Source: a virus. Taken from it: a stretch of DNA of 64,000 nt. Where the stretch lies: the IMG/VR virus record IMGVR_UViG_3300008255_000111, positions 1 through 64,000 of that record; one strand, written 5' to 3'. This document shows, piece after piece, positions 323 through 63,642 of the stretch. A program made the position numbers and the translations under genes. A model generated the notes under the pieces. That model was given only the letters and a program-made list of their open reading frames with translations. It had not been told where the DNA came from and ran no database searches. Within the stretch, counting starts at the first letter, position 1. The number at the start of each line of letters is the position of its first letter.

Positions 323-437
323 CCGAGCTTCATTTGCTCGGGATGGTTTGGCGTTGAAGCGATCGCCGCTTCGACACAAACAACCTCTCATAAACTAAGG
401 GTAGCGCAAGCGTTTTTCTGACGCCGATGGTGCTTTT
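323..437 (-). promoter_or_regulatory. promoter with GCACCATC box and leader hairpins
   Basis: box 426-437; TTGCGC(404-409)-N16-GAGGTT(382-387); hairpin 356-372; CCGAGC-AAATGAA-GCTCGG 323-341. Confidence 0.7.
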
Positions 438-441
438 TAAA

Positions 442-470
442 CTGCAATCGATTGCTGCAATCGATTGCAG
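442..470. repeat. 16-bp palindrome, overlapping double copy
   Basis: CTGCAATCGATTGCTGCAATCGATTGCAG. Confidence 0.95.
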
Positions 471-1553
471 CTACCAAAGGCGATCGGAGGTAGCGCCGTC
501 CTCAGTCCACTCGCTCGCTTGAACGCGCTGCATCCTCAGCGCCTCAGAGCGCTCAGCGTATGACCCCTTGACCTTCGGCTTAGACTTCTTCGCTGATGAG
601 CGGCGGCCCGTGCTTTCCTTCCAAGACAGCCACGCCCCTCGGCACAGGACATTGATCACGCCGTGGTCCACCCAGCCGAACTCAGCCTCAAGCCATGCCC
701 CATCGCTTTCGCGCTGCTTCTCCACGACATACGCCACATAGGAGAGCACGTCGGGAAGCCCCTCCATCTCAATGACCTTCTCAATCTTCTTAATAGACTG
801 CTCTTTCGGCACCTTCTGCGCGCTCTGGCTCAAAAGGGCATATACCTGAAGCAGCTTGCTCACCTCGGCGCTTACTGGTGCCTGGGCTTTAGAGCGCAGT
901 CGATCTCGACCTCGCTGCTTCACACCCTGAGAACTAGACGTGTCATCAGGGGGCTCAATGGAGCCGAGCGGCCCTTGACCTGATCGATAGTCACCTGGGC
1001 AGTGACCGTCATCAGGCATTGACTGATCGGCGCCACAGGGATCGGCACCATCACCCTCTAAGCGCTCTGGAGTTGGGCACGAGTCGCCGCAGCTTTTCCC
1101 ATCACAATGACGCCTGATGCGAGAGCTGCGCTTGACGTTGGCGTTGAACTTAAGGTGCGACACATACTCCCAGCGCATCCACATCCCGAGCTGCTTATCC
1201 TTGTCCGCGAAGCACACATTGAACGTCAGGCCTGTCGCGCGGCGCCGTTCAAGATAAAGATCAAAGTGCTCCTGCTGGATCGGAAGGCGAACGATCAGGT
1301 TGGTCATCCGGCCATGCTCGCTTGTCGAGCGAGCTTCGCAGGAGATGACCCCCAATTCCTCCAGCTTCTTAATCGCGCTCTGGCGCTGAAACTTGCTAAG
1401 GTGAAGCAACTGCTCGATCTTGAGCGACGACAAGGTGCAATAACCTCGGCGCCAGCACATCTGGTTGATCAAAGAGAGCAGAGCCACCGCAGGGTAGTAT
1501 TGGTGAAGATCAGCGATGACGCAGACATCAAAGTCGGATAACGAGAACAGCAT
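471..1553 (-). CDS. putative replication initiator / replisome-organiser-like winged-helix protein
   Basis: N-terminal AVALLSLI...IEQLLHLSKFQRQSAIKKLEELGVI wHTH pattern, low-complexity linker, helical C-terminal domain. Confidence 0.55.
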   Translation of the reverse strand: MLFSLSDFDVCVIADLHQYYPAVALLSLINQMCWRRGYCTLSSLKIEQLLHLSKFQRQSAIKKLEELGVISCEARSTSEHGRMTNLIVRLPIQQEHFDLYLERRRATGLTFNVCFADKDKQLGMWMRWEYVSHLKFNANVKRSSRIRRHCDGKSCGDSCPTPERLEGDGADPCGADQSMPDDGHCPGDYRSGQGPLGSIEPPDDTSSSQGVKQRGRDRLRSKAQAPVSAEVSKLLQVYALLSQSAQKVPKEQSIKKIEKVIEMEGLPDVLSYVAYVVEKQRESDGAWLEAEFGWVDHGVINVLCRGAWLSWKESTGRRSSAKKSKPKVKGSYAERSEALRMQRVQASEWTEDGATSDRLW

Positions 1554-1892
1554 AAGAAGACCCTATTTGGATTTTCTAGCCGCTCTACCATTGACGAATC
1601 AAAGCGTATCATGAATGATGCTTTTACTGTTTCTTGGTAGGACAGCCAGTACGTTAAGTGCATTAAGAGAGCCTGGGCTAGCGACCCAGGCTCTCTCTTT
1701 TCTTGGTGAGTTGACACTACTCCCGTTTGGCACATCTTGGCAAGGCGTTACTCCCCCTGTTTAGCTCCCCCCTGGTTCCAGGCAGCGAGAGCGAAGCGAG
1801 CGCGCCGCAGTAGTAGTCCTTAACTTTCGAGACAAGGAGCGCAGCGACGCAGGCTCGAAAGTTTAAGGCTCTTGCCCCCTGTATGCTTTAAG

Positions 1893-1936
1893 GGCGAGTT
1901 TACTCGCAGGGGGTAGGCGAGTTTACTCGCAGGGGG
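1893..1936. repeat. 21-bp direct repeat x2 with internal palindrome (iteron-like)
   Basis: GGCGAGTTTACTCGCAGGGGG at 1893-1913 and 1916-1936. Confidence 0.85.
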
Positions 1937-1977
1937 GTGATCCCCCGCTCAAGCGCTTGACTAGAGGCCCATAGACG

Positions 1978-2020
1978 CAAAAAGACCCCTGATCGGATTT
2001 TATCGCCCAGGGGTCTTTTG
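1978..2020. terminator. intrinsic terminator, possibly bidirectional
   Basis: AAAAGACCCCTG...CAGGGGTCTTTT directly after the stop of 2028..2603. Confidence 0.7.
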
Positions 2021-2027
2021 TTCAGCG

Positions 2028-2603
2028 CTACTTGTCGTCGTTTTCGCCGTCATCTGATGCCTCACTGATCTCTAAGAGTTGGTTCAGCGGCAGCCCTGGA
2101 TGAGAGCGCGTCAGCTCTCTTGAAGCAGCCCTTTTCCTCACTGTCGCCGCGTCCTCTCCATTGATCATGAGCGTCATTGAAAGATTCAGGTAGTAGTCGC
2201 GCTCACCCCTCACTCGCTCCAGCTCGCGTTGGAGGTCTTCAAACCTAAGCGTCCTTTCATTGAGCGTCTGCTGGAACTGCTCACGCATATCAGCCATACG
2301 CTGCTCAGCGTACTTGTCTACAAGCTCCTGAAGCTCTTGTTCGCGCGTCAGAAGGCGGGAGGCTTTCTTCTCCTCGATCGAGTCGATGTGCTTCCATCGA
2401 TCCTTGAGGCGTCGCCCTTGCTCAAGGAGCAGATCCTTGCCCAACATAGCCAGCGTGGCCAGCACCAGTCCTAGCGCTACTCGCCAGTCCATCAAGTCTG
2501 CTGCTGTAATCATATTGCTTACTTCTGGTGAAGGCACGTTCGACGGCAGCTTTAGCGGCTGCGTCGGCATCGAAGGCGGTATCGTCATCAAGAACTGGAG
2601 CAT
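2028..2603 (-). CDS. membrane-anchored coiled-coil protein (lysis-associated candidate)
   Basis: GGAGGT RBS before ATG 2603; one TM (WRVALGLVLATLAMLG) then a long coiled coil. Confidence 0.6.
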   Translation of the reverse strand: MLQFLMTIPPSMPTQPLKLPSNVPSPEVSNMITAADLMDWRVALGLVLATLAMLGKDLLLEQGRRLKDRWKHIDSIEEKKASRLLTREQELQELVDKYAEQRMADMREQFQQTLNERTLRFEDLQRELERVRGERDYYLNLSMTLMINGEDAATVRKRAASRELTRSHPGLPLNQLLEISEASDDGENDDK

Positions 2604-3078
2604 TTGCACCTCCTTCGGCATAAACTGCGCGTAAGCCGCACATTGTCCCAACAAGCCATACTCCTGTTGCAAAGCCCTGTCCTGCATCGGAGAACGAAAT
2701 GGTGATAAGCAAGCAACACATCGAGCCGATGACATAGGCTATCTTTCTGAACCATACCCAATGACTCGTCCAAGCAAGGATCATCACGCACGAGATGATG
2801 ATCCTGACCAGCCCACCTTCGGGGCCTGAGATGCGAGTCCATCTGATCAACGTCGAGTAAGCGTCCATCCCCGAGGGCGGCCACTGATACATCCCGATGG
2901 TGCCGCTCCAATACAGGATGAGCATTGTGAAGCGCGCTTCATCAGGATCAGCCCTCATAAACTCCTTTGTGCGCTCCCATGCGTGTAAGCCCTGGAGCTT
3001 AGCAAGCAGTTTATCTATTGATTGAGCGGCTTTTGTCTTCATCAGAGCGCGCCAGAGCCTAAAGCGATTCAAGGGCAT
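2422..3078 (-). CDS. multi-pass membrane protein (holin candidate)
   Basis: about 4 hydrophobic segments; AAGGAG RBS; near the endolysin. Confidence 0.55.
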   Translation of the reverse strand: MPLNRFRLWRALMKTKAAQSIDKLLAKLQGLHAWERTKEFMRADPDEARFTMLILYWSGTIGMYQWPPSGMDAYSTLIRWTRISGPEGGLVRIIISCVMILAWTSHWVWFRKIAYVIGSMCCLLITISFSDAGQGFATGVWLVGTMCGLRAVYAEGGANAPVLDDDTAFDADAAAKAAVERAFTRSKQYDYSSRLDGLASSARTGAGHAGYVGQGSAP

Positions 3079-5183: not shown

Positions 5184-6257
5184 TCACCAAGTGTAATGCA
5201 CCCAAGGCTTTGTCTGTGAAGCGACCTTGAGGCGTCGATTTTTATGACCTGCGCTCAAGATGTTGAGGCAGGTGATGAGATCAGCATCATCACCATACTT
5301 CCGTTTGGCCCTGGCAAGATAGCCCTCAGCGCCTTTTCGGGAGTTGCCCGGTCCAAATTGGACGCACATATCAAACAGCACAGCGATCTCAGTCTGGCTT
5401 GACCAGCCGTACTGGCGCGCGAGTGCGAGCGCTGGGACAAGGTAAAACTCGTTGGCCACGATCCTTTGAGCTTGCTTGAAGCACTCGTGCTCAGCCAGCT
5501 CATCATAGCGCTCATTCCAGGGGCCGCGCCATAGATCGTGACCGTCCACGGGCATGACCCTGTTATTTCGCAGGCCCGGCCCAAGCCCTTTGACTGCCCT
5601 GGTCTTGCCTTCGGCTGAGGTCGTCACATCGATCAGCTCTTTAAACTTTGGCCCCATGATCTGAACAAAGAGGTCTGGATTTTGCTCAAACGCCTCTTTG
5701 TTGTAGAGCCCAAGGCTGCCTGGGCTCTGAGCGAATTGAATCATGCCCTCAGAGCGCCCGATGTGCGTTCCAGCGCGCTCATTCCCATCAGCGTCCCACC
5801 TGGACGCCCAGAACGACTTGTAGACGCCCTTGTTTGCCCGTCTCACCTCAGCTCGCTCGGATGGCTTAAGGAAGGCGCCCGTTTCAGGGTGGCGCTTGGG
5901 CTCATCGAACCAGCCCTCATATTCGGCATCAAGGTTCGATGCGGCGTAGGGGTTGGCGTGTCCCGCTGACTCGACGATGATCGTCGGCTCCATCAGCTCT
6001 TTAAAGCGCAAGGGCTCGATGGCCCGCGTTTCTTTGGTCGGCACTGGAGCGGCGGCGGCGATCGCTGCAAAAGTCTTAGGACCGACCTTGCCGTCAGCCA
6101 AGAGTCCGCGTTCGCGCTGCCAGTCGATCACCTTGCCGATCGTCTCTTTACCCCACAGTCCATCCACCGTCGCGCCCACAGCGCTCTGGATGATTCTGGT
6201 GCTCTCTTTGTCGTGGCGCTCGCGGTTGTAGTTGATCAGCTTTCTCAATTCATCCAT
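5184..6257 (-). CDS. endolysin: N-terminal peptidoglycan-binding domain plus lysozyme/chitosanase-like domain
   Basis: DGLWGKET...WQRERGLLADGKVGPKT (PG_binding_1); GMIQFAQSPGSLG and AVLFDMCVQFGPG lysozyme-fold motifs. Confidence 0.85.
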   Translation of the reverse strand: MDELRKLINYNRERHDKESTRIIQSAVGATVDGLWGKETIGKVIDWQRERGLLADGKVGPKTFAAIAAAAPVPTKETRAIEPLRFKELMEPTIIVESAGHANPYAASNLDAEYEGWFDEPKRHPETGAFLKPSERAEVRRANKGVYKSFWASRWDADGNERAGTHIGRSEGMIQFAQSPGSLGLYNKEAFEQNPDLFVQIMGPKFKELIDVTTSAEGKTRAVKGLGPGLRNNRVMPVDGHDLWRGPWNERYDELAEHECFKQAQRIVANEFYLVPALALARQYGWSSQTEIAVLFDMCVQFGPGNSRKGAEGYLARAKRKYGDDADLITCLNILSAGHKNRRLKVASQTKPWVHYTW

Positions 6258-6386: not shown

Positions 6387-9300
6387 TTAGTCGTCGTTAA
6401 GCAGGCCCATCGCCGCCGCGACACCATCCTCGATCTGGACAAGGAGCAGATCAAGCGATGAGTCCTTGTGGAGCTTGGCGAAGCTGGTCAGATCGACTTT
6501 GCCCTTACCAATGCTCTTGGCCATGTCTCCAAGGTCGCGCGAGGCGGTCACGATCGACGACTTCACGATCTTGTTCTTGGTCACGATCAAGTTCTTGGCG
6601 CCCGACTTGGTGGAGGTCATCGCCACCGTCTTCATGCTCGTGCTCGTGTCGCTGCTTGGCGTGGCCTTAAGCGCGGGCGGGGTGGAGGTCTGGTTGTAGT
6701 CGGTAAGGAAGTTGCGCATCAGCGCAACGGCCCCATGATCGACGATTGCCTGCGCGGGCTCGTAAACCGTCATCCTTAACGTCACCTCAGCGATGTCGCC
6801 AGCATTCTCATGAGCGTTCGTCGAGACAAAGCTGGTCGCCCTCGGGAACAGCGCGTTAAGCCTGAGCTTAAAGTCGTTCTTGAACTTGTAGTTGTTATTG
6901 TCGCTGTGAACTGAGAGCCGACCTGTCAACTCAATCAGACCATCGCTTGTCACATAGGTGGTGAGCGTGTTGACATAGCCGTGGGGCGAAAGAGCTGCGT
7001 CAAGATCCTTGCGCACATTCTGCTCGATCGCAGCGGCGTACTCATTCTTCGACATCGATGGCGTGACTGGTGCGATCGACGTGTCCCCAGCCTCGTCTGG
7101 GTTATAGGTGACTTGCATCATCACGTCACGGCGCATGATCCTGAAGTAGTCCTTCGCGTGGGGGATGCCTTTCTCACTAAGAAAGACGTTCTCAGCACCT
7201 GTTCCAACGTCCATCACAACGTGGAACATGATGCTCAACGACTTATAGGTGCCGTCTGCGTTGAGCACCTTGTCAGGCACCATGCTGTCCACGCCAACAG
7301 TAATGACGAGGCGCTGAGTGAAAGCCTCGATGGCATCCTTCAACTTGCGCTCGTCAAACTTGGCCGAAGCAAGGCGAACTGAGTCGTTAAACTCATCGTA
7401 CTCACGATCGAGCTGGAGGTCTTCGCCCAGCTCAAAGACCAAGCGGTAAGACATCTCAGCCTTGGGGCCTTGCCACGCCTTGCCAGAGACGACAGTCTCG
7501 ATGCGTGTCACAACATCGCTGCTTGCCCCTTCGCCAACGCTCCTGAGCGCCCGCTCAAAGCCCTCGATGTCCTCGTCGGTGACAAAGAGCACATCTTCCT
7601 CCCCATCCTCCTCCTCGTCCTCCCAGGGGTCGTCATAGCCGACTGGAGGCGTGCCACCATAGCCAGGGTACGGCTTGGCTGGATCAAAGTCGCCGTCGTC
7701 ATCACGACGATTACTGCTATTGCTCCAGCGGTCCTCGTTGTCGCTTGGGTCTTCCATCGTGAAGGGCACGGGAGAGCCCGTGATCTTATCGAAGTTCTCG
7801 GGGTTCACGATGACGTTGAGATAGCCCTTCTCATCCACATAGATGTCAACATCGTTGGCTTGAGCGCTCAAGCCAATCTCAGCGAGGCTCCTTGCGGCTT
7901 TGTAGTAGAGAGGATCGGCAAAGTCCTCATTCCACGCATCCTCATCCCAGCCGTCGCCGTCGTTACCATAGTGATCAAGGCGCTCTCGGTTATCCGGGTC
8001 GATCTCGACGTAGATGTTGCCCTTTCCATCGATCTCGTCAGTCCTCACATCGCCAAGCCAGCGCACAGCCTTTTTGACGGTGTAGATGAGATCGTCAAGA
8101 TCGTACTGACCAGCGCTTGAAGCAGACTGAGGTGTCGGTGCATTGGTGCCACGAGCAAACATCGCCGCCAGTTGATCGTAGGCCATAGAGTTGATTGAGA
8201 TGGAGATGCGCCCATCGTCAGAGATGTCAGCCTCATATCGATAGGCATCGATGTTGAGCGTTTTCTCGATGTAGTTCTCCACCTTTGCCTGAAGCGGCAA
8301 GGCATAGTCTTCGTTCCAGCTATCCCAATCATCATCGCCGTCCCAAGACGCCACGCGGTTTGGCGGCTTGATCTCAAAGTAGATATAGCCCCCATCTTGC
8401 GGGACGCCGCCGCTCTTAACCTTGGCGTCAACGATCTTAGTCTCCGAGACCGAGCCCAGAGCGCTAAGGTGACTGGCTAAGGCAGATTGGAGCGCCTTCA
8501 CATCAACATCGGCACTATATGGCGCGCTACTTCCAGTCCTGACTGATGGTGAGGGAGTCACCTGAGAGGCACTTGAAGGCTCAGGAGTTGCAAACACAGG
8601 GCGCGAAGCTGTGGCGGGGGAGTCGAACACTTGGCCCTTCACGTCAATGATGTTGAGCGGGATGCTCGGGTCTGTGCTGAACTGAGCAAACGCCTTCTGC
8701 GTCTTCTCAGCGGCGCCATCCTTGGGGTTGAAGTCTTCAAGGTCAGACTGGCGCTGGAAGGTGATCTCCACGCGATAGGACATGCCGTTGAGGCCAAGGC
8801 CCATATCATCAGCCATAACACGGATGCCATTCATATCCATGTTGGGGTCCGTGCTGATGTAAGCCATGATCAACTGAGCGGCGAAGCTACGCCAATCCTG
8901 CATACGGCGGTCCATCCCATCCGCGAAGTCCCACTCATCGTCTTGGTCGATGTCTTGCCAGTTCTCGGGCTCGATGCGCAGCTCACCATCGACTGTGATC
9001 TCAAAGAGGCCGTTCTCTTTGTTGAGATCAAAGCGGGGCTTGCCGTTGGCGTTCAGGATCTTGTTCAAGAAGCCAAACTTCGTCTCAGCAAGACGCTCGT
9101 TTGTGACACCTGTTGACATCGTAGTTGCTCCATTGGAAGGGGCTCTAGGTGGTTGGGGTGGGGCTGCGTCAGCAGCGGGCTCAGGTGCAGACGCAGGCTT
9201 ATTGGTGGACGGCAGCGGGTTGAACTTGCTGTCGGTCACAATCCCAAGGCTGCGCGAGATGCTCGCGGTTTCGCCGGGCGTCAAGATCAACATCGAGATG

Positions 9301-11561
9301 CCATCGTCCTCGATATCAAGGTCGAGGCTGTCGGCAGTGTGCGTGATTCCAAACTTCGCGAACATATTGATCACGTCGTTCTTCACGCGACGAACAAAGC
9401 TGCTCTCATACCAGTCTTCGTCGCTGTCAAAGTCTCGACGCGTCATGATGTCGCGAGGCTCAAAGGTGATGTAAGACTCGGCCCCAGCAAGCTCAGCCTT
9501 AAGCATCCTGCCGATCGGCTTGAAGGCGTCAATCATGTGCCAGGAGAACGTGTCCTCATCGACTTCCTCTCCTCCTGTGAAGCCGCCTCGATCGACCGTA
9601 GACACAGCCTTCATTCCAGCGGGGATGACCTCGGGGGCAGATGGTGCAGACGCCGCAGACGACATCTCAGGCGCGACCTTGACGGGCTCAGTCGATGCAA
9701 GCGGCATCACGGGGGCGATCGGCGCCGAAGGGGGCGGCACGAGCGACCTGCCCTTGAATGGCTTGGTCGGATCGACGGTGTAGAGCGAAAGCTCCCTTGC
9801 GAGGGCCGATGGGTTGGGGTGGATCTCGACGCCCTCGAACAAACCCTGAGTGAGCTGGCAGATGACCGTGTAGTCCCCACCGCTATTGTCCGCGCCGTTG
9901 AACGTCACGCGCACCTTCATGTGCATGGGGAACAAATCCACGAAGGATGCTCGGATCACAGACGAAAGATCCTCCCAGCGCATATCAAGCTCAGCTAGCT
10001 GCTGACCTGCATTGAACCTGTTGTAAGCGTTGGGCGGCTCGGTTGGCCACCTCACGTTGACCTTAAGCTCGTCGTAAGCTCCATCGTCTTTACGACGAGA
10101 CATGCTGACCCTAAGCGCCTTGGTGAGAAGCGCTTTGACAGCAGCTTCAACTCGCCCCGGCACAACCTCGATAACGCCACCTGATTGATTCTCGGCCATC
10201 GATTTCACCCTCGTGATAATGTCGATCGTATTTTTGATAAGTTCTTGAGATTTCTTCTGTTTTAAGCCCCTGAGCAGCGCCGCGCTGTCAACGCTCTTGG
10301 TGTCACGCGCCACAGCGTCAGCGAGCGCTTGAGCTGCTGAGGCGATCTGAGCAGGGTTGCCGCCTTCGATGGCATTCCTAAAGGCCCGGTTCGCTGACTG
10401 CACAAAGGTCGTATTTGTCCAGCCCACGATAAACTTATGAACGCTGTTCGCATCAGCGATCAGGTCAGGCACGTTGGTGCGCCCTTCCAGCTTACGCGTC
10501 ATCTTAAAGAAGCCGTCAGCTCCAGCAAGAAGATCCTGCCCCACATCGACGCTGCGCTCACCGCCCCCAACCCTGTTGATCGGAGCGGCTGGGCGACCCC
10601 AGCATGGGAGCGCGGGATCAGACGTAAACTCCTGAAGCGTGCTCAGCATCCTGTTCATGTTGTAGCTGACAAACTGGAGCTGATTGAGCTTGTTCTTGAC
10701 CTGCTCAGCGACGTAGGTGATCTCAATGCGATACCTCATGCCGCTCTTGTTAAAGCCCAAGGCTTTGCACGAGGCTTTGATCGGCGTCTGCGTGAGCGTG
10801 TTGGACACACCCGTTTGGATCAGCGACTCAATGGTGATGGGCGCGGCGTTGAAGCGATCAAGGATCTCATCGCGCCAGCGCACATAAGTCTCCTGATCCG
10901 CCCCAAGCTCGTTCAAGTGCACCTCAAGCTCGTTAGGATTGCCGCTGAGGTTGAACTTTGATCTGGACACACCAATGAGCGTCAAGACGCTCTCTTTCCC
11001 TGTGACGATGTGGTTGCGTGCTTGAAGGTCAACGTTAAGGAAGGGGCTGAACATCTGAACAAAGATGTGAGAGGACGGCAGGTCATTCCCAAGGAAGGGC
11101 ACAGGCTGGGCGTCGGTGACTGCACCAAAGGTCTGCGCCAGCTTCTCAGCGCCATCACCCTTCATGGTGATGAGCACATAACCCAGGCGGACCACTTCAA
11201 GCGCGTAGTCAATCTTCTCGACCAGCTCAAAGCGCCCGAAGATGCGCCTGATCTCGCTGAGCGCAGGTTCAAAGCGCGCGTACCATTCAAGGGTCGGCTG
11301 CTCTTTCTCAAGGCGATCAGCGATGAAGCCGTCAAGCGTCTCGCGCTCACCGCCAAGCAGCGAGAATGAGAGCGTGTTGCGCACATCATATTCGATCTCG
11401 CTTGCCAGCTCCTTCAAGAGCGGGGGGCTGGTCGGCTGCTGAGTGAAGATCGCCTTAAGTGACTCAACGATCTTATCAAGATCGTAGTCTAAGCCTTGGA
11501 TGACAGCTTCGTTCAAACCAAGGAACGCATCCATCCTCTCGCTCAAAGTACCTTTGCTCAT
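6387..11561 (-). CDS. giant (~1720 aa) acidic repeat protein, putative internal virion protein
   Basis: long ORF; LSERMDAFLGLNEA N-terminus; repeated acidic domains with Pro/Ala/Ser linkers. Confidence 0.7.
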   Translation of the reverse strand: MSKGTLSERMDAFLGLNEAVIQGLDYDLDKIVESLKAIFTQQPTSPPLLKELASEIEYDVRNTLSFSLLGGERETLDGFIADRLEKEQPTLEWYARFEPALSEIRRIFGRFELVEKIDYALEVVRLGYVLITMKGDGAEKLAQTFGAVTDAQPVPFLGNDLPSSHIFVQMFSPFLNVDLQARNHIVTGKESVLTLIGVSRSKFNLSGNPNELEVHLNELGADQETYVRWRDEILDRFNAAPITIESLIQTGVSNTLTQTPIKASCKALGFNKSGMRYRIEITYVAEQVKNKLNQLQFVSYNMNRMLSTLQEFTSDPALPCWGRPAAPINRVGGGERSVDVGQDLLAGADGFFKMTRKLEGRTNVPDLIADANSVHKFIVGWTNTTFVQSANRAFRNAIEGGNPAQIASAAQALADAVARDTKSVDSAALLRGLKQKKSQELIKNTIDIITRVKSMAENQSGGVIEVVPGRVEAAVKALLTKALRVSMSRRKDDGAYDELKVNVRWPTEPPNAYNRFNAGQQLAELDMRWEDLSSVIRASFVDLFPMHMKVRVTFNGADNSGGDYTVICQLTQGLFEGVEIHPNPSALARELSLYTVDPTKPFKGRSLVPPPSAPIAPVMPLASTEPVKVAPEMSSAASAPSAPEVIPAGMKAVSTVDRGGFTGGEEVDEDTFSWHMIDAFKPIGRMLKAELAGAESYITFEPRDIMTRRDFDSDEDWYESSFVRRVKNDVINMFAKFGITHTADSLDLDIEDDGISMLILTPGETASISRSLGIVTDSKFNPLPSTNKPASAPEPAADAAPPQPPRAPSNGATTMSTGVTNERLAETKFGFLNKILNANGKPRFDLNKENGLFEITVDGELRIEPENWQDIDQDDEWDFADGMDRRMQDWRSFAAQLIMAYISTDPNMDMNGIRVMADDMGLGLNGMSYRVEITFQRQSDLEDFNPKDGAAEKTQKAFAQFSTDPSIPLNIIDVKGQVFDSPATASRPVFATPEPSSASQVTPSPSVRTGSSAPYSADVDVKALQSALASHLSALGSVSETKIVDAKVKSGGVPQDGGYIYFEIKPPNRVASWDGDDDWDSWNEDYALPLQAKVENYIEKTLNIDAYRYEADISDDGRISISINSMAYDQLAAMFARGTNAPTPQSASSAGQYDLDDLIYTVKKAVRWLGDVRTDEIDGKGNIYVEIDPDNRERLDHYGNDGDGWDEDAWNEDFADPLYYKAARSLAEIGLSAQANDVDIYVDEKGYLNVIVNPENFDKITGSPVPFTMEDPSDNEDRWSNSSNRRDDDGDFDPAKPYPGYGGTPPVGYDDPWEDEEEDGEEDVLFVTDEDIEGFERALRSVGEGASSDVVTRIETVVSGKAWQGPKAEMSYRLVFELGEDLQLDREYDEFNDSVRLASAKFDERKLKDAIEAFTQRLVITVGVDSMVPDKVLNADGTYKSLSIMFHVVMDVGTGAENVFLSEKGIPHAKDYFRIMRRDVMMQVTYNPDEAGDTSIAPVTPSMSKNEYAAAIEQNVRKDLDAALSPHGYVNTLTTYVTSDGLIELTGRLSVHSDNNNYKFKNDFKLRLNALFPRATSFVSTNAHENAGDIAEVTLRMTVYEPAQAIVDHGAVALMRNFLTDYNQTSTPPALKATPSSDTSTSMKTVAMTSTKSGAKNLIVTKNKIVKSSIVTASRDLGDMAKSIGKGKVDLTSFAKLHKDSSLDLLLVQIEDGVAAAMGLLNDD

Positions 11562-11634
11562 CTCCAACATTCTCCTTGGCGCCCGGCTGGTCCGGGCTAC
11601 GTCCATGTCATGCGCGCTGCTGTTGGGCCGCCCG

Positions 11635-15613: not shown

Positions 15614-15680
15614 GCCGGGCCTCATTTGCCCGGCATCGTTTAGTGAGTCTTGACTTTCGCTCAACTAGCCAGGAGCGCAA
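15614..15680 (-). promoter_or_regulatory. promoter plus AAATGAG-loop hairpin
   Basis: TTGCGC(15675-15680)-N16-GAAAGT; GCCGGGC-AAATGAG-GCCCGGC 15614-15634. Confidence 0.7.
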
Positions 15681-15683
15681 GCA

Positions 15684-17363: not shown

Positions 17364-17401
17364 AAATGAGGTAGCTGCAATCGATTGCAGCTACCTCATT
17401 T
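17364..17401. repeat. 16-bp palindrome with extended arms (terminator-like)
   Basis: AAATGAGGTAG-core-CTACCTCATTT. Confidence 0.95.
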
Positions 17402-17419: not shown

Positions 17420-17998
17420 TCAAGCAAGCGACAGTTCGCTTAACACCTGTTCGACAAGATCCTCGGTGGAGCATGTCGCATCAAGCTCAATGGCAAACCT
17501 TGACCAGTCTTTGCAAAGGCTCCGATAGTGCTCCTGCCGACCTTTGATGACTTCAACGGAATCATCGTCAAAGACGTTGAGCTTGCCTCGCTGCGCCAGT
17601 CGAGCACAAAGCGTCTCGACTGGCGCCGTCAAAAGGAAGGTAAATGAAGGTCTGGCCGCGCCCCTGTTGAGCGCGGGGACGTAATCCTGAACCATGAACT
17701 GATAGACGTAGCTCGACCATACATCTCGGTCGGTGATGACGATCAGCCCCTCATCAAGCGCCGCTTCGATGACAGGCTTGAGCAGGAGCCTATCTAACGC
17801 AAAGAGCAGCGCGAGCTTCATATGAACGTCAAAGGAGTCATCACAGCTCTCGCTGATGATCCCCCTGATCTCCCTGCCGTAAGGGGAGTCACTTGGCTGC
17901 CTTATGATCAGGCAGCGCTCAGCTAGACGGCTTTCTAACTCGTTGACGAGACTGGTCTTGCCAGCCCCGTCAACTCCCTCGATGGCGATATAGGTCAT
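17420..17998 (-). CDS. tmk: thymidylate kinase
   Basis: IAIEGVDGAGKTS P-loop; LLFALDR; ITDRDVWSSYVYQ. Confidence 0.95.
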   Translation of the reverse strand: MTYIAIEGVDGAGKTSLVNELESRLAERCLIIRQPSDSPYGREIRGIISESCDDSFDVHMKLALLFALDRLLLKPVIEAALDEGLIVITDRDVWSSYVYQFMVQDYVPALNRGAARPSFTFLLTAPVETLCARLAQRGKLNVFDDDSVEVIKGRQEHYRSLCKDWSRFAIELDATCSTEDLVEQVLSELSLA

Positions 17999-18213
17999 CC
18001 GACCTCCATTTGCTGCAAGTGGCAGCCGTTTTCACTGAGACAAAGCGCTTGACGACGCACCTTGCCATTCTTCAGGTCAGTCAGGACGCGGATGCGCGCT
18101 TTGCCCGGAGGCATCTTGCACTTGCAGTCCTGACAGATAAAGGATTTGGAGAAGTTAACAACTTGGTAGGATTGAGTAAGCATGACAAGCTCCGAGTGAT
18201 AGGCCGCCTTCAT
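17995..18213 (-). CDS. small Cys-rich zinc-finger protein
   Basis: CQDC...CLSENGC; start uncertain because the ATG lies in a hairpin loop. Confidence 0.55.
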   Translation of the reverse strand: MKAAYHSELVMLTQSYQVVNFSKSFICQDCKCKMPPGKARIRVLTDLKNGKVRRQALCLSENGCHLQQMEVG

Positions 18214-18289
18214 TTGGCGGTTGACGTTGAGTTGGGCGGCTTCGTTGCCGCCGATACATAGAACTTGACAGCGACTAGACTTGGCGCAA
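18204..18289 (-). promoter_or_regulatory. promoter plus two leader hairpins
   Basis: TTGCGC(18284-18289)-N16-CAAGTT; GGCGGC-AACGAA-GCCGCC; CCGCC-AAATGAA-GGCGG 18204-18220. Confidence 0.75.
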
Positions 18290-18290
18290 G

Positions 18291-25593: not shown

Positions 25594-25973
25594 AAGGGGG
25601 CTGCGTGCTTTTGGATCATCTTAATGAGAAAAACCCTGGGCAGGGTGCGCAGCTTGTCATAGTGAATGGCGGCGGACGCCACCTCGCGGATGACTTTCCA
25701 GTCGTTGTCCCAGAGCGCATCAGCCTTGTTGGGCTCAGCGGTGGCGAAGTCATGCACAAGGCGCCAAACCTCAGAAGCGATCTCATCGTCAGGAAAGGCC
25801 CAGCGCTCACCACGCGACTCTTTCTCGACCTCAGTGATTAAGCGCGCCTTATTGGACGGTCTAGCAGGAAGATCAAAGACAGACTCACCCGGCTCTAGCA
25901 GCTCCTCCTCAAGCTCAAGCGTCTCAACTGGACGATGCGCCATCAGGATGTCGTCGTCTTCGAGCATGATCAC
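25590..25973 (-). CDS. hypothetical acidic protein
   Basis: AGGAGG RBS, GTGA overlap. Confidence 0.65.
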   Translation of the reverse strand: MIMLEDDDILMAHRPVETLELEEELLEPGESVFDLPARPSNKARLITEVEKESRGERWAFPDDEIASEVWRLVHDFATAEPNKADALWDNDWKVIREVASAAIHYDKLRTLPRVFLIKMIQKHAAPF

Positions 25974-26197
25974 GACCTCCTGGCGGCGCGCCCTCGGCGC
26001 TCGTCGCGCAGCTCGCTCAAGATCGCCTGATCGTTCAAGCGGCGTCGGCGCTCACTTGGCATAGGTTGCGCGGGCCTTGGCACTGGCGCCGCCTTAATGT
26101 CTACCTGGGGCTTGGGGGTGCTCGCTTGTTGGATCTGCGAGCTGTCCATCGAAAGCGCAAAAAGCAGCGCGGTGATCCCGTACATCTCTAACCTCAC
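25970..26197 (-). CDS. small protein with Arg-rich C-terminus
   Basis: overlap-coupled ORF. Confidence 0.5.
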   Translation of the reverse strand: MRLEMYGITALLFALSMDSSQIQQASTPKPQVDIKAAPVPRPAQPMPSERRRRLNDQAILSELRDERRGRAARRS

Positions 26198-26241: not shown

Positions 26242-26661
26242 TCAGCTTGACGAGCCGAACTCCTCCTCATGGCATTTAAGCCAGCGCCTCAGCGTGCTCT
26301 CAGCCACACCATGCAGCTTCGCGATGTGGCGCTTGGAGTAACCCTCACTGAGCAGCCTGCGCGCGGTGCGGCAGATGTAGACGACATCGCGGCGGCGCCT
26401 CACTGCGCGCTTAGGAGCGGGGCTCGGCGCCTCTTTCTTGACAAGTCGAGCTGCCTTGACTGCGACAAGATCCAGGTAGATCCCAAGCCCGCTCTCATCA
26501 GAAAGCTCGACCTTGAGCTGTCGCGTTACTTCAACGACCTGAAAGCGGTGCGGGCCGCCTGCTCCTGGCACCATAATCATGTCACCAACGCGAGGCGTGG
26601 CAGACGAAAACGTCTGGCGCGCATGATCCGGCAATCCATGTCCTACCAATGTCCAAGACAT
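26242..26661 (-). CDS. HTH DNA-binding protein
   Basis: LLSEGYSKRHIAKLHGVAESTLRRWLK. Confidence 0.75.
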   Translation of the reverse strand: MSWTLVGHGLPDHARQTFSSATPRVGDMIMVPGAGGPHRFQVVEVTRQLKVELSDESGLGIYLDLVAVKAARLVKKEAPSPAPKRAVRRRRDVVYICRTARRLLSEGYSKRHIAKLHGVAESTLRRWLKCHEEEFGSSS

Positions 26662-29999: not shown

Positions 30000-30085
30000 C
30001 GCCCCCTTCATTTGGGGGCGCGTGGTAGTGTGGGCGCCTATCGCCCTTGACGACTTCATACTCTATGAATTGCGCCGCTTGTCCA
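30000..30085 (-). promoter_or_regulatory. promoter plus two leader hairpins
   Basis: TGGACA(30080-30085)-N16-GAGTAT; hairpin 30032-30046; CGCCCCC-AAATGAA-GGGGGCG 30000-30020. Confidence 0.7.
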
Positions 30086-30289
30086 GTGAAAAGCGACGCT
30101 GGGCGATGTTTTTTAGAGCGCTTTGATCTGAGCTTCAAGGCGATCAATCTCATCATACATCGCGTTCAGCTCAGCCTGTTGAGCAGCGGGGATGTCATCC
30201 CCCATTCCATCAACTCGCGCTTTTGCTTTTGCTTGCTCATTTGCTGCTCCTGGCGTTCGTTCGTTTGCGTCATCGCTTCCGACAACTTC

Positions 30290-32857: not shown

Positions 32858-33068
32858 GGATTGAAGGGGGTGTCGTTTGGGTTGCTGACCCTTTAACTAA
32901 TAGCACCTCAGCAACTTGCGTCCATTGAAAAACAGACGCTGATGGTGCTTTTATATCTGGAGATTCTGGCGCATGAAGTGCGATGGTGAGCTGTGATGAT
33001 TGACTGAGCGAGCGCTAGGCCCCCTAGCCCTGGATGTGGCATTTAGCTGCTCTAAGCGCGCGCTCTAA

Positions 33069-33260
33069 GCCCTGTCTAGGGCGGCAGCTTGAAACTTGAG
33101 GTATAGGTCGCCTCGTTGAGCTGACTCGTCTTAAGCGATTCTAGGGCCTTGGCACTAGCCCTGTCTAGGGCGTGAGCTGAAGACTTGAGGTATAGGGTTG
33201 GATGTCTAAGATGAATCGTCTTGGGCGATTCTATGGGCTTTAAAACTGGCCCTGTATAGG
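33069..33260. repeat. ~90-bp degenerate tandem repeat (2 units plus partial third)
   Basis: units start GCCCTGT(C/A)TAGG at 33069, 33158, 33249; shared ACTTGAGGTATAGG and TCGTCTT..GCGATTCTA blocks. Confidence 0.85.
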
Positions 33261-33293
33261 TTTGAGGCCCCTGACTCGGTGTGAAGTAGGCGC

Positions 33294-33321
33294 AAAAAAA
33301 GCCCCCCTCGCAAGGGGGGCT
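33294..33321 (-). terminator. intrinsic terminator
   Basis: AGCCCCCC/GGGGGGCT stem with a U7 tract on the minus strand. Confidence 0.8.
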
Positions 33322-33346
33322 CTAAGGGGGGCTCTAGAGGTAAGGG

Positions 33347-34135: not shown

Positions 34136-34200
34136 TTTGCCGCTCGTGTTTGAAGGTTGGGTTAAAGGGCGTTGCAGCGGGTTGGGCTGCTGTTGATTTA

Positions 34201-34228
34201 AGTCTGGATTGAACTAGCCTGAGCGCAA
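34201..34228 (-). promoter_or_regulatory. promoter
   Basis: TTGCGC-TCAGGCTAGTTCAATC-CAGACT with A-rich upstream tract. Confidence 0.7.
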
Positions 34229-34426
34229 GTGTTTTTTGATATTGGATGCGTTTTTTATTAGCGTTTAACTAGCTTTAACTGAGCTTTGCGTGAGCTGTTT
34301 GATAGTTGAGTGGCGATGATTGAGCTGGAAGCCTGACTAGCGTTTTACTAGAGCTTTGCATGTTGTGTTGTGGGCGGCAGCGCACCTTACTTTATACTTT
34401 ATAACTTAAGATGCGCTGCGAGAAGC

Positions 34427-39433: not shown

Positions 39434-39470
39434 CGCATCTCCGTCGTTTCCGTTCGCTTTCAACAACTTA

Positions 39471-39498
39471 AGACTCTCACTCACTGACAAAAGCGCAA
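39471..39498 (-). promoter_or_regulatory. promoter
   Basis: TTGCGC-TTTTGTCAGTGAGTGA-GAGTCT. Confidence 0.65.
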
Positions 39499-39512
39499 GA
39501 TAAAAACAACGA

Positions 39513-39923: not shown

Positions 39924-40258
39924 ACCACCAAGTTAAAGGTCACGCCACTAGAGCGACCATGCTGCCCAGGCGCGTCACTGCGCACCTTGGCGATCACTCG
40001 ATCGAGATCGCCGTTGCTCATGGCGCCGAAGACTACTGAGTCAAACTGCGCAGTCTCCATCGCTTCGACCGCCTGCGCGTCGTCATTTGACGACCTGATG
40101 ATCTTGGCGATGTGACGCACTGCCAAGCCAAGCTGATCGATGTGATGCTCTATCTGCGCGATCAGCTCAACATCTTCAGCGTCTGCGCGCGCGCCCTCAA
40201 GGTAGTCGCTCAAGTCCTCACAGCGCTCTCTAAGAGCGATCAACGTTTTCATGCTCAT
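39920..40258 (-). CDS. hypothetical helical protein
   Basis: AGGAG RBS before MSMKT. Confidence 0.6.
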   Translation of the reverse strand: MSMKTLIALRERCEDLSDYLEGARADAEDVELIAQIEHHIDQLGLAVRHIAKIIRSSNDDAQAVEAMETAQFDSVVFGAMSNGDLDRVIAKVRSDAPGQHGRSSGVTFNLVV

Positions 40259-40276: not shown

Positions 40277-40392
40277 CGCTCCCTTCATTTGGAAGCGACT
40301 TGTTTGGTTTGGCAGCGGGCTAGCTGCTCATGTTTAGACTTTAACGCTCCTCCAACTGATGAAAAGCAAAAAAGCACGCTGATGGTGCTTTT
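40277..40392 (-). promoter_or_regulatory. promoter with GCACCATC box and two leader hairpins
   Basis: box 40381-40392; TTTTCA-N16-TAAAGT(40338-40343); hairpin 40312-40327; CGCTTCC-AAATGAA-GGGAGCG 40277-40297. Confidence 0.7.
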
Positions 40393-42090: not shown

Positions 42091-42173
42091 CCGCTTTCGT
42101 TTAGCGGGGTTGGTTAAAGTGGAGTCGCGCGGACCCCATAAGTGAAGACTGAGGTAAACTATGGAGGGCGCAA
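42091..42173 (-). promoter_or_regulatory. promoter plus two leader hairpins
   Basis: TTGCGC(42168-42173)-N16-CAGTCT; hairpin 42121-42137; CCGCT-AAACGAA-AGCGG 42091-42107. Confidence 0.7.
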
Positions 42174-42174
42174 G

Positions 42175-42212
42175 AAAAAAACGACGCTCGGTGTTCCGAG
42201 CGTCGTTTTTTT
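42175..42212. terminator. bidirectional intrinsic terminator
   Basis: AAAAAAACGACGCTCGG-TGTT-CCGAGCGTCGTTTTTT. Confidence 0.85.
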
Positions 42213-42334
42213 ACCTCGCCGCTTTCCTGGCTTTCCTGGCGGCTTTGGCCTTGGCTCTCGCCTTCTTCTGTCTCTTGCTCAAGGCTTGGCGAGCGTAGCC
42301 GGGATCAGGCGCTACTTGAGGCAGCAGCAGCCCA

Positions 42335-42664
42335 TCAAGGCGCTCTAAAGCCTTTCTTCTTTCCTCGTCGTTTGCGGGAGGCGCTTGCGGACTGTCGTAC
42401 ACGTTCTTCACCTGTGGTTGAGGGGTCTTCTGACCGTCGCCCAAGGTGGCGAGAGGCGACGAACGCCCACTCCTCACCGTTGAGGTGACTGGAGGTGGTG
42501 AGACACATATCACCAACCTTGACTGAGGCAGCATTGGTGAGCCGCCTTATCTTGTGAGCGCTGACCTTGTTGGCTATTTTCCATGCTGAGTAGGCAAGGT
42601 CAAGCGTGGTGTGCCTGCTGGTCACGCGCCATCCGCGATCAACAACGACGTAGAGGTAAGTCAT
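42335..42664 (-). CDS. hypothetical basic protein (possible frameshift into the frame ending 42211)
   Basis: MTYLYVVV start; overlapping second ORF 42211..42534. Confidence 0.45.
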   Translation of the reverse strand: MTYLYVVVDRGWRVTSRHTTLDLAYSAWKIANKVSAHKIRRLTNAASVKVGDMCLTTSSHLNGEEWAFVASRHLGRRSEDPSTTGEERVRQSASASRKRRGKKKGFRAP

Positions 42665-44015: not shown

Positions 44016-44066
44016 TGTGTGCTCCGTTATGTTGTGTGGGCGACGTTGCCCCGTTTCGATAACTGA

Positions 44067-44094
44067 AGACTAAAACGCACTAGACTCGGCGCAA
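44067..44094 (-). promoter_or_regulatory. promoter
   Basis: TTGCGC-CGAGTCTAGTGCGTTT-TAGTCT. Confidence 0.7.
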
Positions 44095-44149
44095 GTGCTA
44101 AATGTCGTTTTTTGATTATTTTACTGACACTTAGCACCTAATTGGACGA

Positions 44150-50229: not shown

Positions 50230-50263
50230 TTAGGGCGGCGTGTTGGCCGCCGTTGATGTTTAG

Positions 50264-50291
50264 ACTTTGGATCGACTACCAAGTAGGTCAA
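50264..50291 (-). promoter_or_regulatory. promoter
   Basis: TTGACC-N16-CAAAGT, followed by a GGCGG/CCGCC hairpin. Confidence 0.65.
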
Positions 50292-50322
50292 CCCTAAAAA
50301 CGACGCTGAGCGTATTTTTTCC

Positions 50323-54634: not shown

Positions 54635-55459
54635 CTAAAACAGCGACACTTGCCCGCGCTCATCTATCTGGTAAGACACTGGAGGCTTGTCATAGGCGCT
54701 TGGCGGTGCGGGGGCGGCTCCCCAAGGCACATAGAGCATGAAGTTGGCCTTAGCACAGACCAGCACAGTGTGATCAATGTCCTGGCCGGTCAGGTGTAGA
54801 GCATGGTTGCCCGCCACCATAAGCGTTCGCCCTGTGCCGACGCACGGGTCGCAGACCTTGACATGCACGCCAACGTCGAACATGCCCATTTTAGCCATGC
54901 ACTTCACGACCTCCATCGGAGTCGGAAAAAACGCCGTGGACGACTTGCCGTGGCCGCTCTCACTCAAGAGCGCTCCAAAGTAGTCGTAGGGCGCTCCGAT
55001 CATGAGGTCCAGGCAGAACGTCTGATATAGCTCCTCGTGAAGCCCCTGCGTGACATCAGCGGGCGGATGAGGCGTTCTGGAGTCAAGGCTCCAACTGATC
55101 CACTCGGCCAAGATGGGGACGGTTCGCGAGGCGCTGTAACCATACCTACTGCCGATTGCATCGAGACAACTCCTCAGCATCCCAATCGTCACATCGCAGG
55201 GCGACGACAAGAAGTCAATCTGCGGGATCTCTTTGATGCTGGCGACCGTGTTATCACCAAGGTGCATGAGCCACCACATCCATCGACCCCATAGAACGTC
55301 GTCGAGCTGGAGCAAGAACTCAAAAGCCCAACCTGCACCATTCTCGATGCGCGGCGCGCTCGGGCATGGCAGGACCACCTTGTTAGGCTTCCACGACCGT
55401 CTGAACATCTCAAAGGATGCTTTCATGATGACACCTGCTTCAAAAATGGCGTCCTGCAT
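54635..55459 (-). CDS. N6-adenine methyltransferase-like protein (SAM-binding half only)
   Basis: FFPTPMEVV, VCDPCVGTGRTL, GQDID; no NPPY/F motif. Confidence 0.75.
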   Translation of the reverse strand: MQDAIFEAGVIMKASFEMFRRSWKPNKVVLPCPSAPRIENGAGWAFEFLLQLDDVLWGRWMWWLMHLGDNTVASIKEIPQIDFLSSPCDVTIGMLRSCLDAIGSRYGYSASRTVPILAEWISWSLDSRTPHPPADVTQGLHEELYQTFCLDLMIGAPYDYFGALLSESGHGKSSTAFFPTPMEVVKCMAKMGMFDVGVHVKVCDPCVGTGRTLMVAGNHALHLTGQDIDHTVLVCAKANFMLYVPWGAAPAPPSAYDKPPVSYQIDERGQVSLF

Positions 55460-56505: not shown

Positions 56506-56733
56506 TCACCACTCAATTCGGGGCTCCTCAAGGGAGTACCCGAAGAACTCGTAGGGGTCGTCCAGCATGAGCGCGTCCTCATCGTCCATGTGCTCATCCA
56601 TGACACAAGAGTGACAGGTGAGGCCGAGCTTGCCCTTATAAGCGCGCGTCAAGCGCTTCATCGGAAAGCCGCAAGAGGCGCAGATCGTCTCCTTCCTCAA
56701 CTTCACCGTCTTAAGCTCGTGCTGCTCAGTCAT
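56506..56733 (-). CDS. small zinc-finger protein
   Basis: CASC...CHSC; AAGGAG RBS. Confidence 0.65.
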   Translation of the reverse strand: MTEQHELKTVKLRKETICASCGFPMKRLTRAYKGKLGLTCHSCVMDEHMDDEDALMLDDPYEFFGYSLEEPRIEW

Positions 56734-56750: not shown

Positions 56751-56833
56751 CCGCCTTTATTTGGCGGGTGTCGTTTGAGTCGCTTCGATGTGAAGCGATA
56801 AGATGACTTTGAGCGACACTAGCCTTGTGGCAA
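56751..56833 (-). promoter_or_regulatory. promoter plus two leader hairpins
   Basis: TTGCCA(56828-56833)-N16-CAAAGT; hairpin 56780-56798; CCGCC-AAATAAA-GGCGG 56751-56767. Confidence 0.75.
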
Positions 56834-56856
56834 GGGGAAAATGTCGTTTTTTTGAT

Positions 56857-60290: not shown

Positions 60291-60304
60291 TTAAACTCCA
60301 TGAG

Positions 60305-62716: not shown

Positions 62717-62728
62717 ATTCACCTCTCG

Positions 62729-62744
62729 CTGCAATCGATTGCAG
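62729..62744. repeat. 16-bp palindrome
   Basis: abuts the RBS of the next gene. Confidence 0.95.
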
Positions 62745-62771
62745 TTGGAGCATAAGGCATCCCTAAGAACT

Positions 62772-62803
62772 GAGAAAGCCCTAGTGGCATACTAGGGCTC
62801 TCA
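62772..62803 (-). terminator. intrinsic terminator
   Basis: AGCCCTAGT/ACTAGGGCT stem. Confidence 0.6.
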
Positions 62804-62817
62804 CTGGTCAATCTAGG

Positions 62818-63015
62818 TCAGTTGGGCGAGGGTGCGATCGGCATGTCGTCAAAGAACTTGTCCTCACCCTCATCGTAGGCGAAGACGATCTTAGCGCACT
62901 CGACGTTTGATCCTAAGACCTTGAGCTGGTCGATGATGGCAGCTCGTTCCTCGTCACTAGGGCGCCTGGAGACTTCGACTGTGAGCGTGAGCGAGAGAAT
63001 AGGGTTATCGGTCAT
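62818..63015 (-). CDS. hypothetical protein
   Basis: 65-aa ORF between two hairpins. Confidence 0.55.
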   Translation of the reverse strand: MTDNPILSLTLTVEVSRRPSDEERAAIIDQLKVLGSNVECAKIVFAYDEGEDKFFDDMPIAPSPN

Positions 63016-63080
63016 GTTTGAACCTGCGATGCAAGAGAAGGGGCACTAGGCCCCTTCTAGCTGAAGTTATGGATGATGTA

Positions 63081-63530
63081 TTAGATCGACTGGCGCTCGG
63101 CCAGCTCGGCTGCGCCCTTGGGGCCGATGCCGCGCATGACACTATCGTAGGAGGTCAGGGGGCGCCCCGTCACGGGGCAGAAGAACTTGACCTTGACCTC
63201 GATGCCAGCAGCGCGAGCAGCGGGGATGGCGTTGATCAACTTGGCATATTTGCGCAGCTTGCCGCCCTCGGGCAAGCGCTTGAATGGATGGATGCGCCCG
63301 TCGCTGCCGCAGACAGCGAAGGGGTGCATCTTGCCATTAGTGACCTTCCACAAGAAGGGCACGTCTGCGCCGTCTGCGTGGAAGATCCTGAACTCGCGCA
63401 GCTCACCCGTCTTGGGGTTGAACAAGACGATCTGGGCGTCGTGCTTGGCGGGATCAAGCAGCTCAGGGAATGCGCTAAAGTTGGCGGTGTCGATCGAGGA
63501 AGAAATCATGGCGTCGATGATGGTTTTCAT
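63081..63530 (-). CDS. DUF6011-containing protein
   Basis: C-terminal FCPVTGRPLT..DSVMRGIGP. Confidence 0.75.
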   Translation of the reverse strand: MKTIIDAMISSSIDTANFSAFPELLDPAKHDAQIVLFNPKTGELREFRIFHADGADVPFLWKVTNGKMHPFAVCGSDGRIHPFKRLPEGGKLRKYAKLINAIPAARAAGIEVKVKFFCPVTGRPLTSYDSVMRGIGPKGAAELAERQSI

Positions 63531-63551
63531 GGGGTGTTCTCTTTTGTGTGT

Positions 63552-63642
63552 CCGCCGTCATTTGGCGGGGTGCGTTGAGATGTGAGCGGCTTCGTTGCCG
63601 CCCGTCATGTTTTAAACATCGCATCGACTAGACTGAGCGCAA
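63552..63642 (-). promoter_or_regulatory. promoter plus two leader hairpins
   Basis: TTGCGC(63637-63642)-N16-GATGTT; GCGGC-AACGAA-GCCGC; CCGCC-AAATGAC-GGCGG 63552-63568. Confidence 0.75.

Follow-up and report, generated by a model that had tools for sequence, protein, structure and literature searches.

Introduction

The operators of T4 gp43, of RNA-phage coat proteins, and of CsrA/RsmE share a common design, in which a conserved loop is displayed on a stem of variable sequence next to the ribosome-binding site (RBS). T4 RegA is the classic phage factor controlling many early mRNAs, and to our knowledge very few cases of regulon-wide translational control in phages have been described. Here, we describe a leader hairpin, termed hp2, that recurs in a linear 104,952-bp IMG/VR virus record (IMGVR_UViG_3300008255_000111; ca. 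81% complete according to CheckV), and compare it with these operators. Bases 1–64000 of the record, termed the window, form the stretch under analysis. An earlier note, made from the letters of this DNA, had listed eight copies of the hairpin and presented them as a candidate boxB/nut-like element.

Leader hairpins are also found in transcriptional control systems. Lambdoid nut sites combine boxA with boxB and are served by the N protein; they share with hp2 a short leader-RNA hairpin after early promoters, with an A-rich conserved loop on a structural stem. The put RNAs of HK022 comprise two successive stem-loops that follow early promoters and act as RNA, as in the leaders described below. 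However, hp2 differs from put in its copy number and its anchoring to the RBS, it gives no match in Rfam, and its upstream companion hairpin is not present in every leader. N4-type promoters are DNA hairpins with 3-nt loops, used by a phage single-subunit RNA polymerase, whereas the loop of hp2 is 7 nt long. PeSL cassettes of T4-type phages consist of a terminator stem-loop plus an early promoter (PMC2839356, PMC4122927). The present phage, a myovirus, shares with them the repeated succession of an intrinsic terminator and an immediately following promoter ahead of small genes without assigned function, but PeSLs lack a conserved-loop hairpin in the transcribed leader beside the RBS (PMC4122927), so that hp2 is not a PeSL feature.

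A hairpin family with variable stems and a conserved loop

We scanned the whole contig for 7-nt loops of the form AAAYRAV closed by stems of at least 5 bp. Nine copies with stems of 5–8 bp were found, all on the minus strand. The eight copies in the window read as the earlier note had described them, and a ninth lies just outside. They are listed here in minus-strand sense, with the gap to the ATG of the following gene and, for the window copies, the score under a covariance model (CM) built from all nine.

323..341, minus strand: hp2, CCGAGC-AAATGAA-GCTCGG, 6-bp stem; ATG at 304, 18-nt gap; CM 35.1 bits
15613..15635, minus strand: hp2, (T)GCCGGGC-AAATGAG-GCCCGGC(G), 7-8 bp stem; ATG at 15591, 21-nt gap; leader without upstream hairpin; CM 35.6 bits
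18204..18220, minus strand: hp2, CCGCC-AAATGAA-GGCGG; ATG at 18183, 20-nt gap, opening a Cys-rich open reading frame (ORF) of 62 amino acids (aa); CM 35.2 bits
30000..30020, minus strand: hp2, CGCCCCC-AAATGAA-GGGGGCG; ATG at 29976, 23-nt gap; CM 34.8 bits
40277..40297, minus strand: hp2, CGCTTCC-AAATGAA-GGGAGCG, one U-G pair; ATG at 40258, 18-nt gap; CM 31.4 bits
42091..42107, minus strand: hp2, CCGCT-AAACGAA-AGCGG; ATG at 42071, 19-nt gap; CM 31.6 bits
56751..56767, minus strand: hp2, CCGCC-AAATAAA-GGCGG; ATG at 56733, 17-nt gap, 75-aa CxxC...CxxC ORF; CM 35.2 bits
63552..63568, minus strand: hp2, CCGCC-AAATGAC-GGCGG; ATG at 63530, 21-nt gap; CM 33.8 bits
65728-65746, minus strand, outside the window: ninth hp2 copy, CCCTCC-AAATAAA-GGAGGG; 23 nt to ATG
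65804-65821, outside the window: possible degenerate tenth copy, GGTTG-CAAATGAA-CGGCC, two U-G pairs; doubtful

Chance does not account for this number, since dinucleotide shuffles (n = 300) contained on average 0.32 such hairpins and never more than 2. The loop motif itself occurs 77 times on the minus strand, and just nine of these occurrences are enclosed by a stem of at least 5 bp. In a gap-free alignment of the nine copies, all from one genome, the inner five pairs form in every copy; at four of these positions both partners have changed in a compensatory manner, and the remaining pair is C-G throughout. Seven different stems thus carry a nearly fixed loop, in which A1–A3 and A6 are invariant, U4 is present in 8/9 copies, and G5 and A7 are each present in 7/9. 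Stems that differ yet always pair had been the core of the earlier proposal, which also named a lack of significant covariation as evidence against it. None of 500 column shuffles reached the observed covariation score, sliding the 3′ arm as a control lowered pairing to 36–46%, and RNAalifold independently returned the same 5-bp helix. The covariance model scores its own nine sequences at 31–36 bits and the rest of the 105 kb at no more than 15 bits. Pairing kept through compensatory changes beneath a nearly fixed loop indicates selection for structure plus loop sequence.

Copies on the opposite strand or inside coding sequences had likewise been named as evidence against the element. The plus strand of the contig contains none, and all nine copies are non-coding once over-extended ORF calls are corrected. 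In the minimum-energy folds from RNAfold, hp2 forms in all leaders, and the Shine-Dalgarno (SD) sequence stays unpaired. No U-run follows the hairpin, which is therefore not a terminator.

Because the stems are free while the loop is asymmetric and the element strand-specific, a palindromic operator for a dimeric binder of double-stranded DNA is excluded. The earlier note had further argued for RNA from one G-U pair and from strict orientation, an argument that the complete set upholds. In addition to the U-G pair at 40277, an outer one extends the copy first read from 15614 to 15613–15635, and the doubtful tenth copy has two. All would be A-C mismatches on the other strand, which identifies the folded strand as the mRNA-sense strand. 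As far as sequence features can distinguish RNA from single-stranded DNA, a function of hp2 as RNA fits best.

Leader architecture

Each of the nine copies lies between a recurrent promoter-like motif and the first gene that follows it. The order of a unit is terminator, promoter-like motif, a first hairpin (hp1), a C/A-rich linker, hp2, and the SD and ATG of the first gene. The described layout of a 5′ hairpin and a C/A-rich linker upstream of hp2 was recovered in 8/9 units, with the 15613 copy lacking the first hairpin as had been noted. Located at the predicted transcript start, hp1 is a stable hairpin of free sequence, and the linker between hp1 and hp2 (12–18 nt) is G-poor, as are the leaders in general outside their hairpins. 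The hp1 copies located in the window are as follows.

63584..63603, minus strand: hp1 of the 63552 leader, GGGCGGC-AACGAA-GCCGCTC by RNAfold, with the C/A-rich linker next
56780..56798, minus strand: hp1 of the 56751 leader
42120..42138, minus strand: hp1 of the 42091 leader
40310..40330, minus strand: hp1 of the 40277 leader
30027..30055, minus strand: hp1 of the 30000 leader
18235..18252, minus strand: hp1 of the 18204 leader, GGCGGC-AACGAA-GCCGCC
346..381, minus strand: hp1 of the 323 leader, core GAAGCG-GCGAT-CGCTTC

Since hp1 lacks conserved features and the 15613 unit does without it, hp2 represents an autonomous module. Its position is constant relative to the downstream gene: the gap from hp2 to the ATG is 17–23 nt in 9/9 units and the gap to the SD 5–11 nt, whereas the distance from the −35 element to the loop ranges from 53 nt (the 15613 unit without hp1) through 71–79 nt (seven copies) to 245 nt in the 65.7-kb unit. 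The leader of the latter is ca. 260 nt long and contains extra structure, with hp2 still 23 nt before the ATG. A constant ATG gap at variable promoter distance shows that hp2 is anchored to the RBS rather than to the start of transcription. Two leaders, those at 18289 and 63642, are near-duplicates of each other. Taken together, hp2 is a real and statistically solid motif that is strand-specific, covaries in its stem, conserves its loop, and is non-coding and RBS-anchored.

The motif upstream of each hp2 begins with A/T-rich sequence, in many cases the T-tail of an intrinsic terminator, and continues with CTTGCGC, a spacer with (C)TAGT, and an nAnnnT hexamer. Its form is TTGCGC-N16-nAnnnT, with the hexamer often AAAGTC or AGTCTT. 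Thirteen copies occur in the early region, four of them without hp2, and one more at 69431.

63614-63643, minus strand: promoter-like motif, hp2 unit
56805-56834, minus strand: promoter-like motif, hp2 unit
42145-42174, minus strand: promoter-like motif, hp2 unit
40337-40366, minus strand: promoter-like motif, hp2 unit, deviant −35
30062-30091, minus strand: promoter-like motif, hp2 unit, deviant
18261-18290, minus strand: promoter-like motif, hp2 unit
15652-15681, minus strand: promoter-like motif, hp2 unit
381-410, minus strand: promoter-like motif, hp2 unit
50263-50292: motif copy without hp2, −35 at 50291
44066-44095: motif copy without hp2, −35 at 44094
39470-39499: motif copy without hp2, −35 at 39498
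34200-34229: motif copy without hp2, −35 at 34228

A scan for the sigma-70 consensus made no call at these motifs. Of the promoters predicted in the earlier note, what stands is a recurrent upstream motif; canonical sigma-70 sites they are not, and we infer that the motifs are promoters. Outside the window, at 69411-69445, such a motif is followed by an ATG ca. 7 nt later, so that a leaderless or very short-leader transcript is possible there.

At several units, e.g., 42181 and 40365, a T-run terminator hairpin abuts the promoter-like motif. Strong intrinsic terminators on the minus strand at 55446, 52991, 49292, 47979, 22299, and 17366 are instead followed 15–30 nt later by an SD and ATG, with no promoter motif between, so that the genes downstream need either read-through or an unrecognized promoter class. 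Such promoter-less internal terminators occur in hp2 units and also twice (49292, 47979) in P50291, a unit without hp2, while the hp2 units P65985, P42173, and P40365 contain none.

Search for related elements

A match to a described Rfam family had been a further point on which the novelty of the element was to stand or fall. Rfam gave no match at gathering thresholds, and none of seven sub-threshold hits overlaps a hairpin. Literature searches did not return a description of the motif. The proposed search of related phages found the element in no other genome among the collections covered below. Among GenBank phages, megablast of 15 kb gave no match, and the Dda-like helicase reached at most 29% identity. 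In IMG/VR, the helicase query retrieved no relative, and the only hits of the promoter-plus-loop pattern and the consensus hairpin 17-mer were chance matches and, in other prophage-like contigs, unrelated hairpins in single copy. A scan of JGI metagenomes yielded one contig, 99.9% identical to the record; slightly divergent strain contigs also exist. GTDB genomes gave 38 chance matches and no hairpins, and among 5.8 billion proteins neither the clamp-like nor the SprT-like protein has a homologue beyond its own 90% cluster. With no relative carrying the element, the covariation evidence comes from paralogous copies within one genome. On the basis of these searches, hp2 is an RNA motif without a match in Rfam, the literature, or the sequence collections searched; as a cis-regulatory leader hairpin, it is of a kind already known.

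The unrelated hairpins include a single-copy form, AACCCGCC-AAATGAA-GGCGGGTT, that is found past the end of a gene (...cagaaagaagc) in many IMG/VR prophage contigs of enterobacterial type (14 recorded). It has the same loop as hp2 in a different context, with one copy per locus and none before an RBS.

A second repeat of the contig is the 16-bp palindrome CTGCAATCGATTGCAG, with 24 exact copies (16 in the window, 8 beyond) and five one-mismatch copies.

455, 6337, 12807, 17375, 19190, 21648, 24916, 29485, 31833, 35715, 43570, 46948, 49893, 53847, 60305, 62729: CTGCAATCGATTGCAG, 16-bp palindrome, exact copies in the window

Most copies are intercistronic, located past a stop codon and 10–45 nt before the next SD and ATG, and often have copy-specific extended arms; at 17375, 12807, and 6337, the palindrome is the core of an intrinsic terminator with a T-run. 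It is also multi-copy in other IMG/VR contigs. Used as a tag, it led to a complete 133.7-kb phage with five copies, a distant relative whose structural genes show 23–39% protein identity. Both the promoter motif and a conserved-loop hairpin family are absent from this phage.

Genomic context

The contig has a GC content of ca. 56% and a coding fraction of ca. 92%, with nearly every gene on the minus strand. Family scans of 135 ORFs identify a contractile-tailed phage (myovirus) with a tail sheath, a T4 gp19-type tube, and baseplate proteins. An intein-bearing ribonucleotide reductase, a thymidylate kinase, DNA methylases, the Dda-like helicase, and the clamp-like protein were found in the same scans, while proteins of the early region mostly received no family assignment. 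The 105-kb contig, from which ca. 19% of the genome is missing, gave no hit to a sigma factor or RNA polymerase family, and the 64-kb window contains no tRNA genes.

An ORF of 1739 aa (6387-11606, minus strand), upstream of an endolysin-like gene (5184-6257), encodes an acidic protein of repetitive build, in which D/E-rich modules (...DDDWD...W..D...) alternate with Pro/Ser/Ala linkers. Comparison with Pfam, PHROG, and PDB gave no relative, and the protein contains no polymerase motif. A non-coding stretch at 32960-33345, past a terminator at 33300, is rich in CTAG/CCTATAC-type repeats.

Discussion

A conserved loop on a free stem, kept at a short and constant spacing 5′ of the SD of nine unrelated first genes, points to a shared operator for a trans-acting factor. 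We therefore favor, at a probability of roughly 40%, the reading that hp2 is an RBS-proximal RNA operator through which such a factor would control the translation and stability of first-gene mRNAs. In this model, the stem would serve only to present the sequence-specific heptaloop AAAUGAA at a fixed place, 5–11 nt upstream of the SD. A single trans-acting factor, most likely a phage or host protein, would dock on this loop in all nine leaders and co-ordinately control translation initiation, and thereby stability, of the first-gene mRNAs. Both the binding of a factor and the direction of regulation are deduced from the arrangement of the leaders. Of the two functions offered in the earlier note, co-ordinated control of translation or stability fits better with the invariant ATG distance of 17–23 nt, and antitermination has become less likely.

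The T4 gene 43 operator, RNA-phage coat-protein operators, and CsrA/RsmE hairpins resemble hp2 in having a conserved loop on a free stem of 5–8 bp, at or just 5′ of the SD; the shared class features are the fixed short distance to SD and AUG and a stem conserved as structure only. The CsrA and RegA systems moreover link many mRNAs to one regulator, as proposed here. The loop AAAUGAA is, however, unlike those of the known operators: no hp2 loop contains the GGA characteristic of CsrA/RsmE sites, and hp2 has neither an ANYA tetraloop nor the 8-nt loop of gp43. Unlike these operators, it overlaps neither SD nor AUG. The term operator is used here for a functional class by analogy, not for membership of a homologous family.

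Several observations weigh against this reading. Four similar promoter-leader units do without hp2, and their SD shows no visible difference. The possible tenth copy lies ca. 100 nt from an ATG and, if real, would weaken the RBS anchoring. No related genome from the phage, IMG/VR, metagenome, or GTDB searches carries hp2, so that all covariation is paralogous. The SD lies outside hp2, so that repression is a plausible mechanism but not a necessary one. Finally, no binding partner was identified, and the small early proteins show no recognizable RNA-binding domain. Two genes preceded by hp2 (56506-56733 and 17995-18183) encode small CxxC...CxxC proteins, which would suit an autoregulated RNA binder. 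As Com-like partners, these Zn-ribbon products were rejected, since Pfam and the ESM Atlas returned nothing more specific than generic small zinc-ribbon look-alikes.

The boxB/nut analogy of the earlier note implies processive antitermination, with a factor on the nascent hairpin modifying RNA polymerase to read through intrinsic terminators inside or at the end of a unit. The location of hp2 just after promoter-like motifs and its conserved A-rich loop on a variable stem would agree with this, as would the terminators at 55446, 52991, 22299, and 17366, where an SD and ATG follow without a promoter and some read-through is needed. Yet terminators of this type are present in units with and without hp2 alike, among them P50291, and three hp2 units have none. 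A heptaloop replaces the GNRA-like pentaloop, nine sites replace the usual one or two, and the spacing held constant is that to the ATG, which a nut site does not require. No consistent boxA was found: the best leader matches to rrn or lambda boxA (CGCUCUUA / GCUCUUUAACAA-like) have 2–4 mismatches in 8 or 3–7 in 12, lie at varying places, and include leaders without hp2. A scan of all ORFs for Arg-rich windows returned mostly alternative-frame ORFs and no convincing N-like protein, with ca. 19% of the genome missing from the contig; the real candidates, 42211-42534, 26242-26661, and 25970-26197, have no family match, and the Arg/Lys-rich ORFs suggested as partners (25970..26197 and 42211..42664) thus gain no support. 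On this evidence, we keep antitermination as a minority rival that is rather improbable. A single-stranded-DNA element on the non-template strand, such as a hairpin promoter of the N4 type used by a phage RNA polymerase, or a site of priming or nicking, would fit strand specificity and stem covariation with a fixed loop equally well, and a transcript start ca. 10 nt past the hairpin would account for the constant short ATG distance. Against it, a promoter-like motif is already in place upstream of every hp2 copy, family scans revealed neither an RNA polymerase nor a sigma factor in the 105 kb available (ca. 19% of the genome being missing), and the 1739-aa ORF has no polymerase signature or PDB relative. 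We regard this explanation as most improbable.

It is unlikely, though deserving of consideration, that hp2 is a structural element that acts independently of any factor, be it an RBS insulator, a 5′ barrier after RNase E/RNase G processing, or a host endoribonuclease site, with the loop needed only for folding or cleavage. This phage places hairpins before most of its ribosome-binding sites, including the 16-bp palindrome 10–45 nt before internal start codons, hp1 occupies the predicted 5′ end of leaders, and the leaders are G-poor and C/A-rich outside their hairpins, all of which would suit such a role. Insulator and barrier hairpins, however, normally accept any stable loop, and the invariance of A1–A3 and A6 across fully diverged stems would be left unexplained. 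Quite improbable, in our assessment, is that hp2 has no function of its own and hitch-hikes in a duplicated, PeSL-like terminator-promoter-leader cassette spread by recombination. The modularity of the units, the near-duplicate leaders at 18289 and 63642, and the shuffling of composite terminator/promoter cassettes in T4-type phages (PMC4122927, PMC2839356) are compatible with this scenario. Neutral copies, on the other hand, would not retain pairing through compensatory changes at 4/5 positions plus the loop, and hp2 stays beside the RBS although the leaders differ greatly in length and one of them has no hp1.

Other ideas were rejected on more specific grounds. An upstream ORF starting in the loop has the AUG in frame with the gene in 2/6 cases and an AUGA start overlap in 2/6, and three loops contain no AUG, which is the pattern expected by chance. 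Pairing of the loop with 16S rRNA finds no 7-nt complement in E. coli rrsA, used as a proxy. An anti-SD switch is not apparent, as the 5′ arms show no consistent pairing to the true SD and minimum-energy folds keep hp2. For an RNA partner acting in trans, UUCAUUU is not enriched on the mRNA strand.

Returning to the favored operator, we tentatively suggest that hp2 and a putative phage protein may form an undescribed RNA-protein recognition pair, i.e., a heptaloop operator regulon that would switch nine first-gene mRNAs together during infection. In a more exotic version, the loop AAAUGAA may mimic an ideal start-codon context, its variants being the near-cognates ACG and AUA, and thereby pre-load 30S subunits or initiator tRNA beside the real RBS. 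If true, a new loop-protein pair would provide a compact orthogonal RNA-tethering tool like N-boxB or MS2. For the phage lineage itself, whose genes mostly lack assigned function, hp2 is a marker of where transcription units begin. Should one factor read the loop, nine otherwise unrelated first genes would be controlled post-transcriptionally by a small RNA tag beside the RBS.

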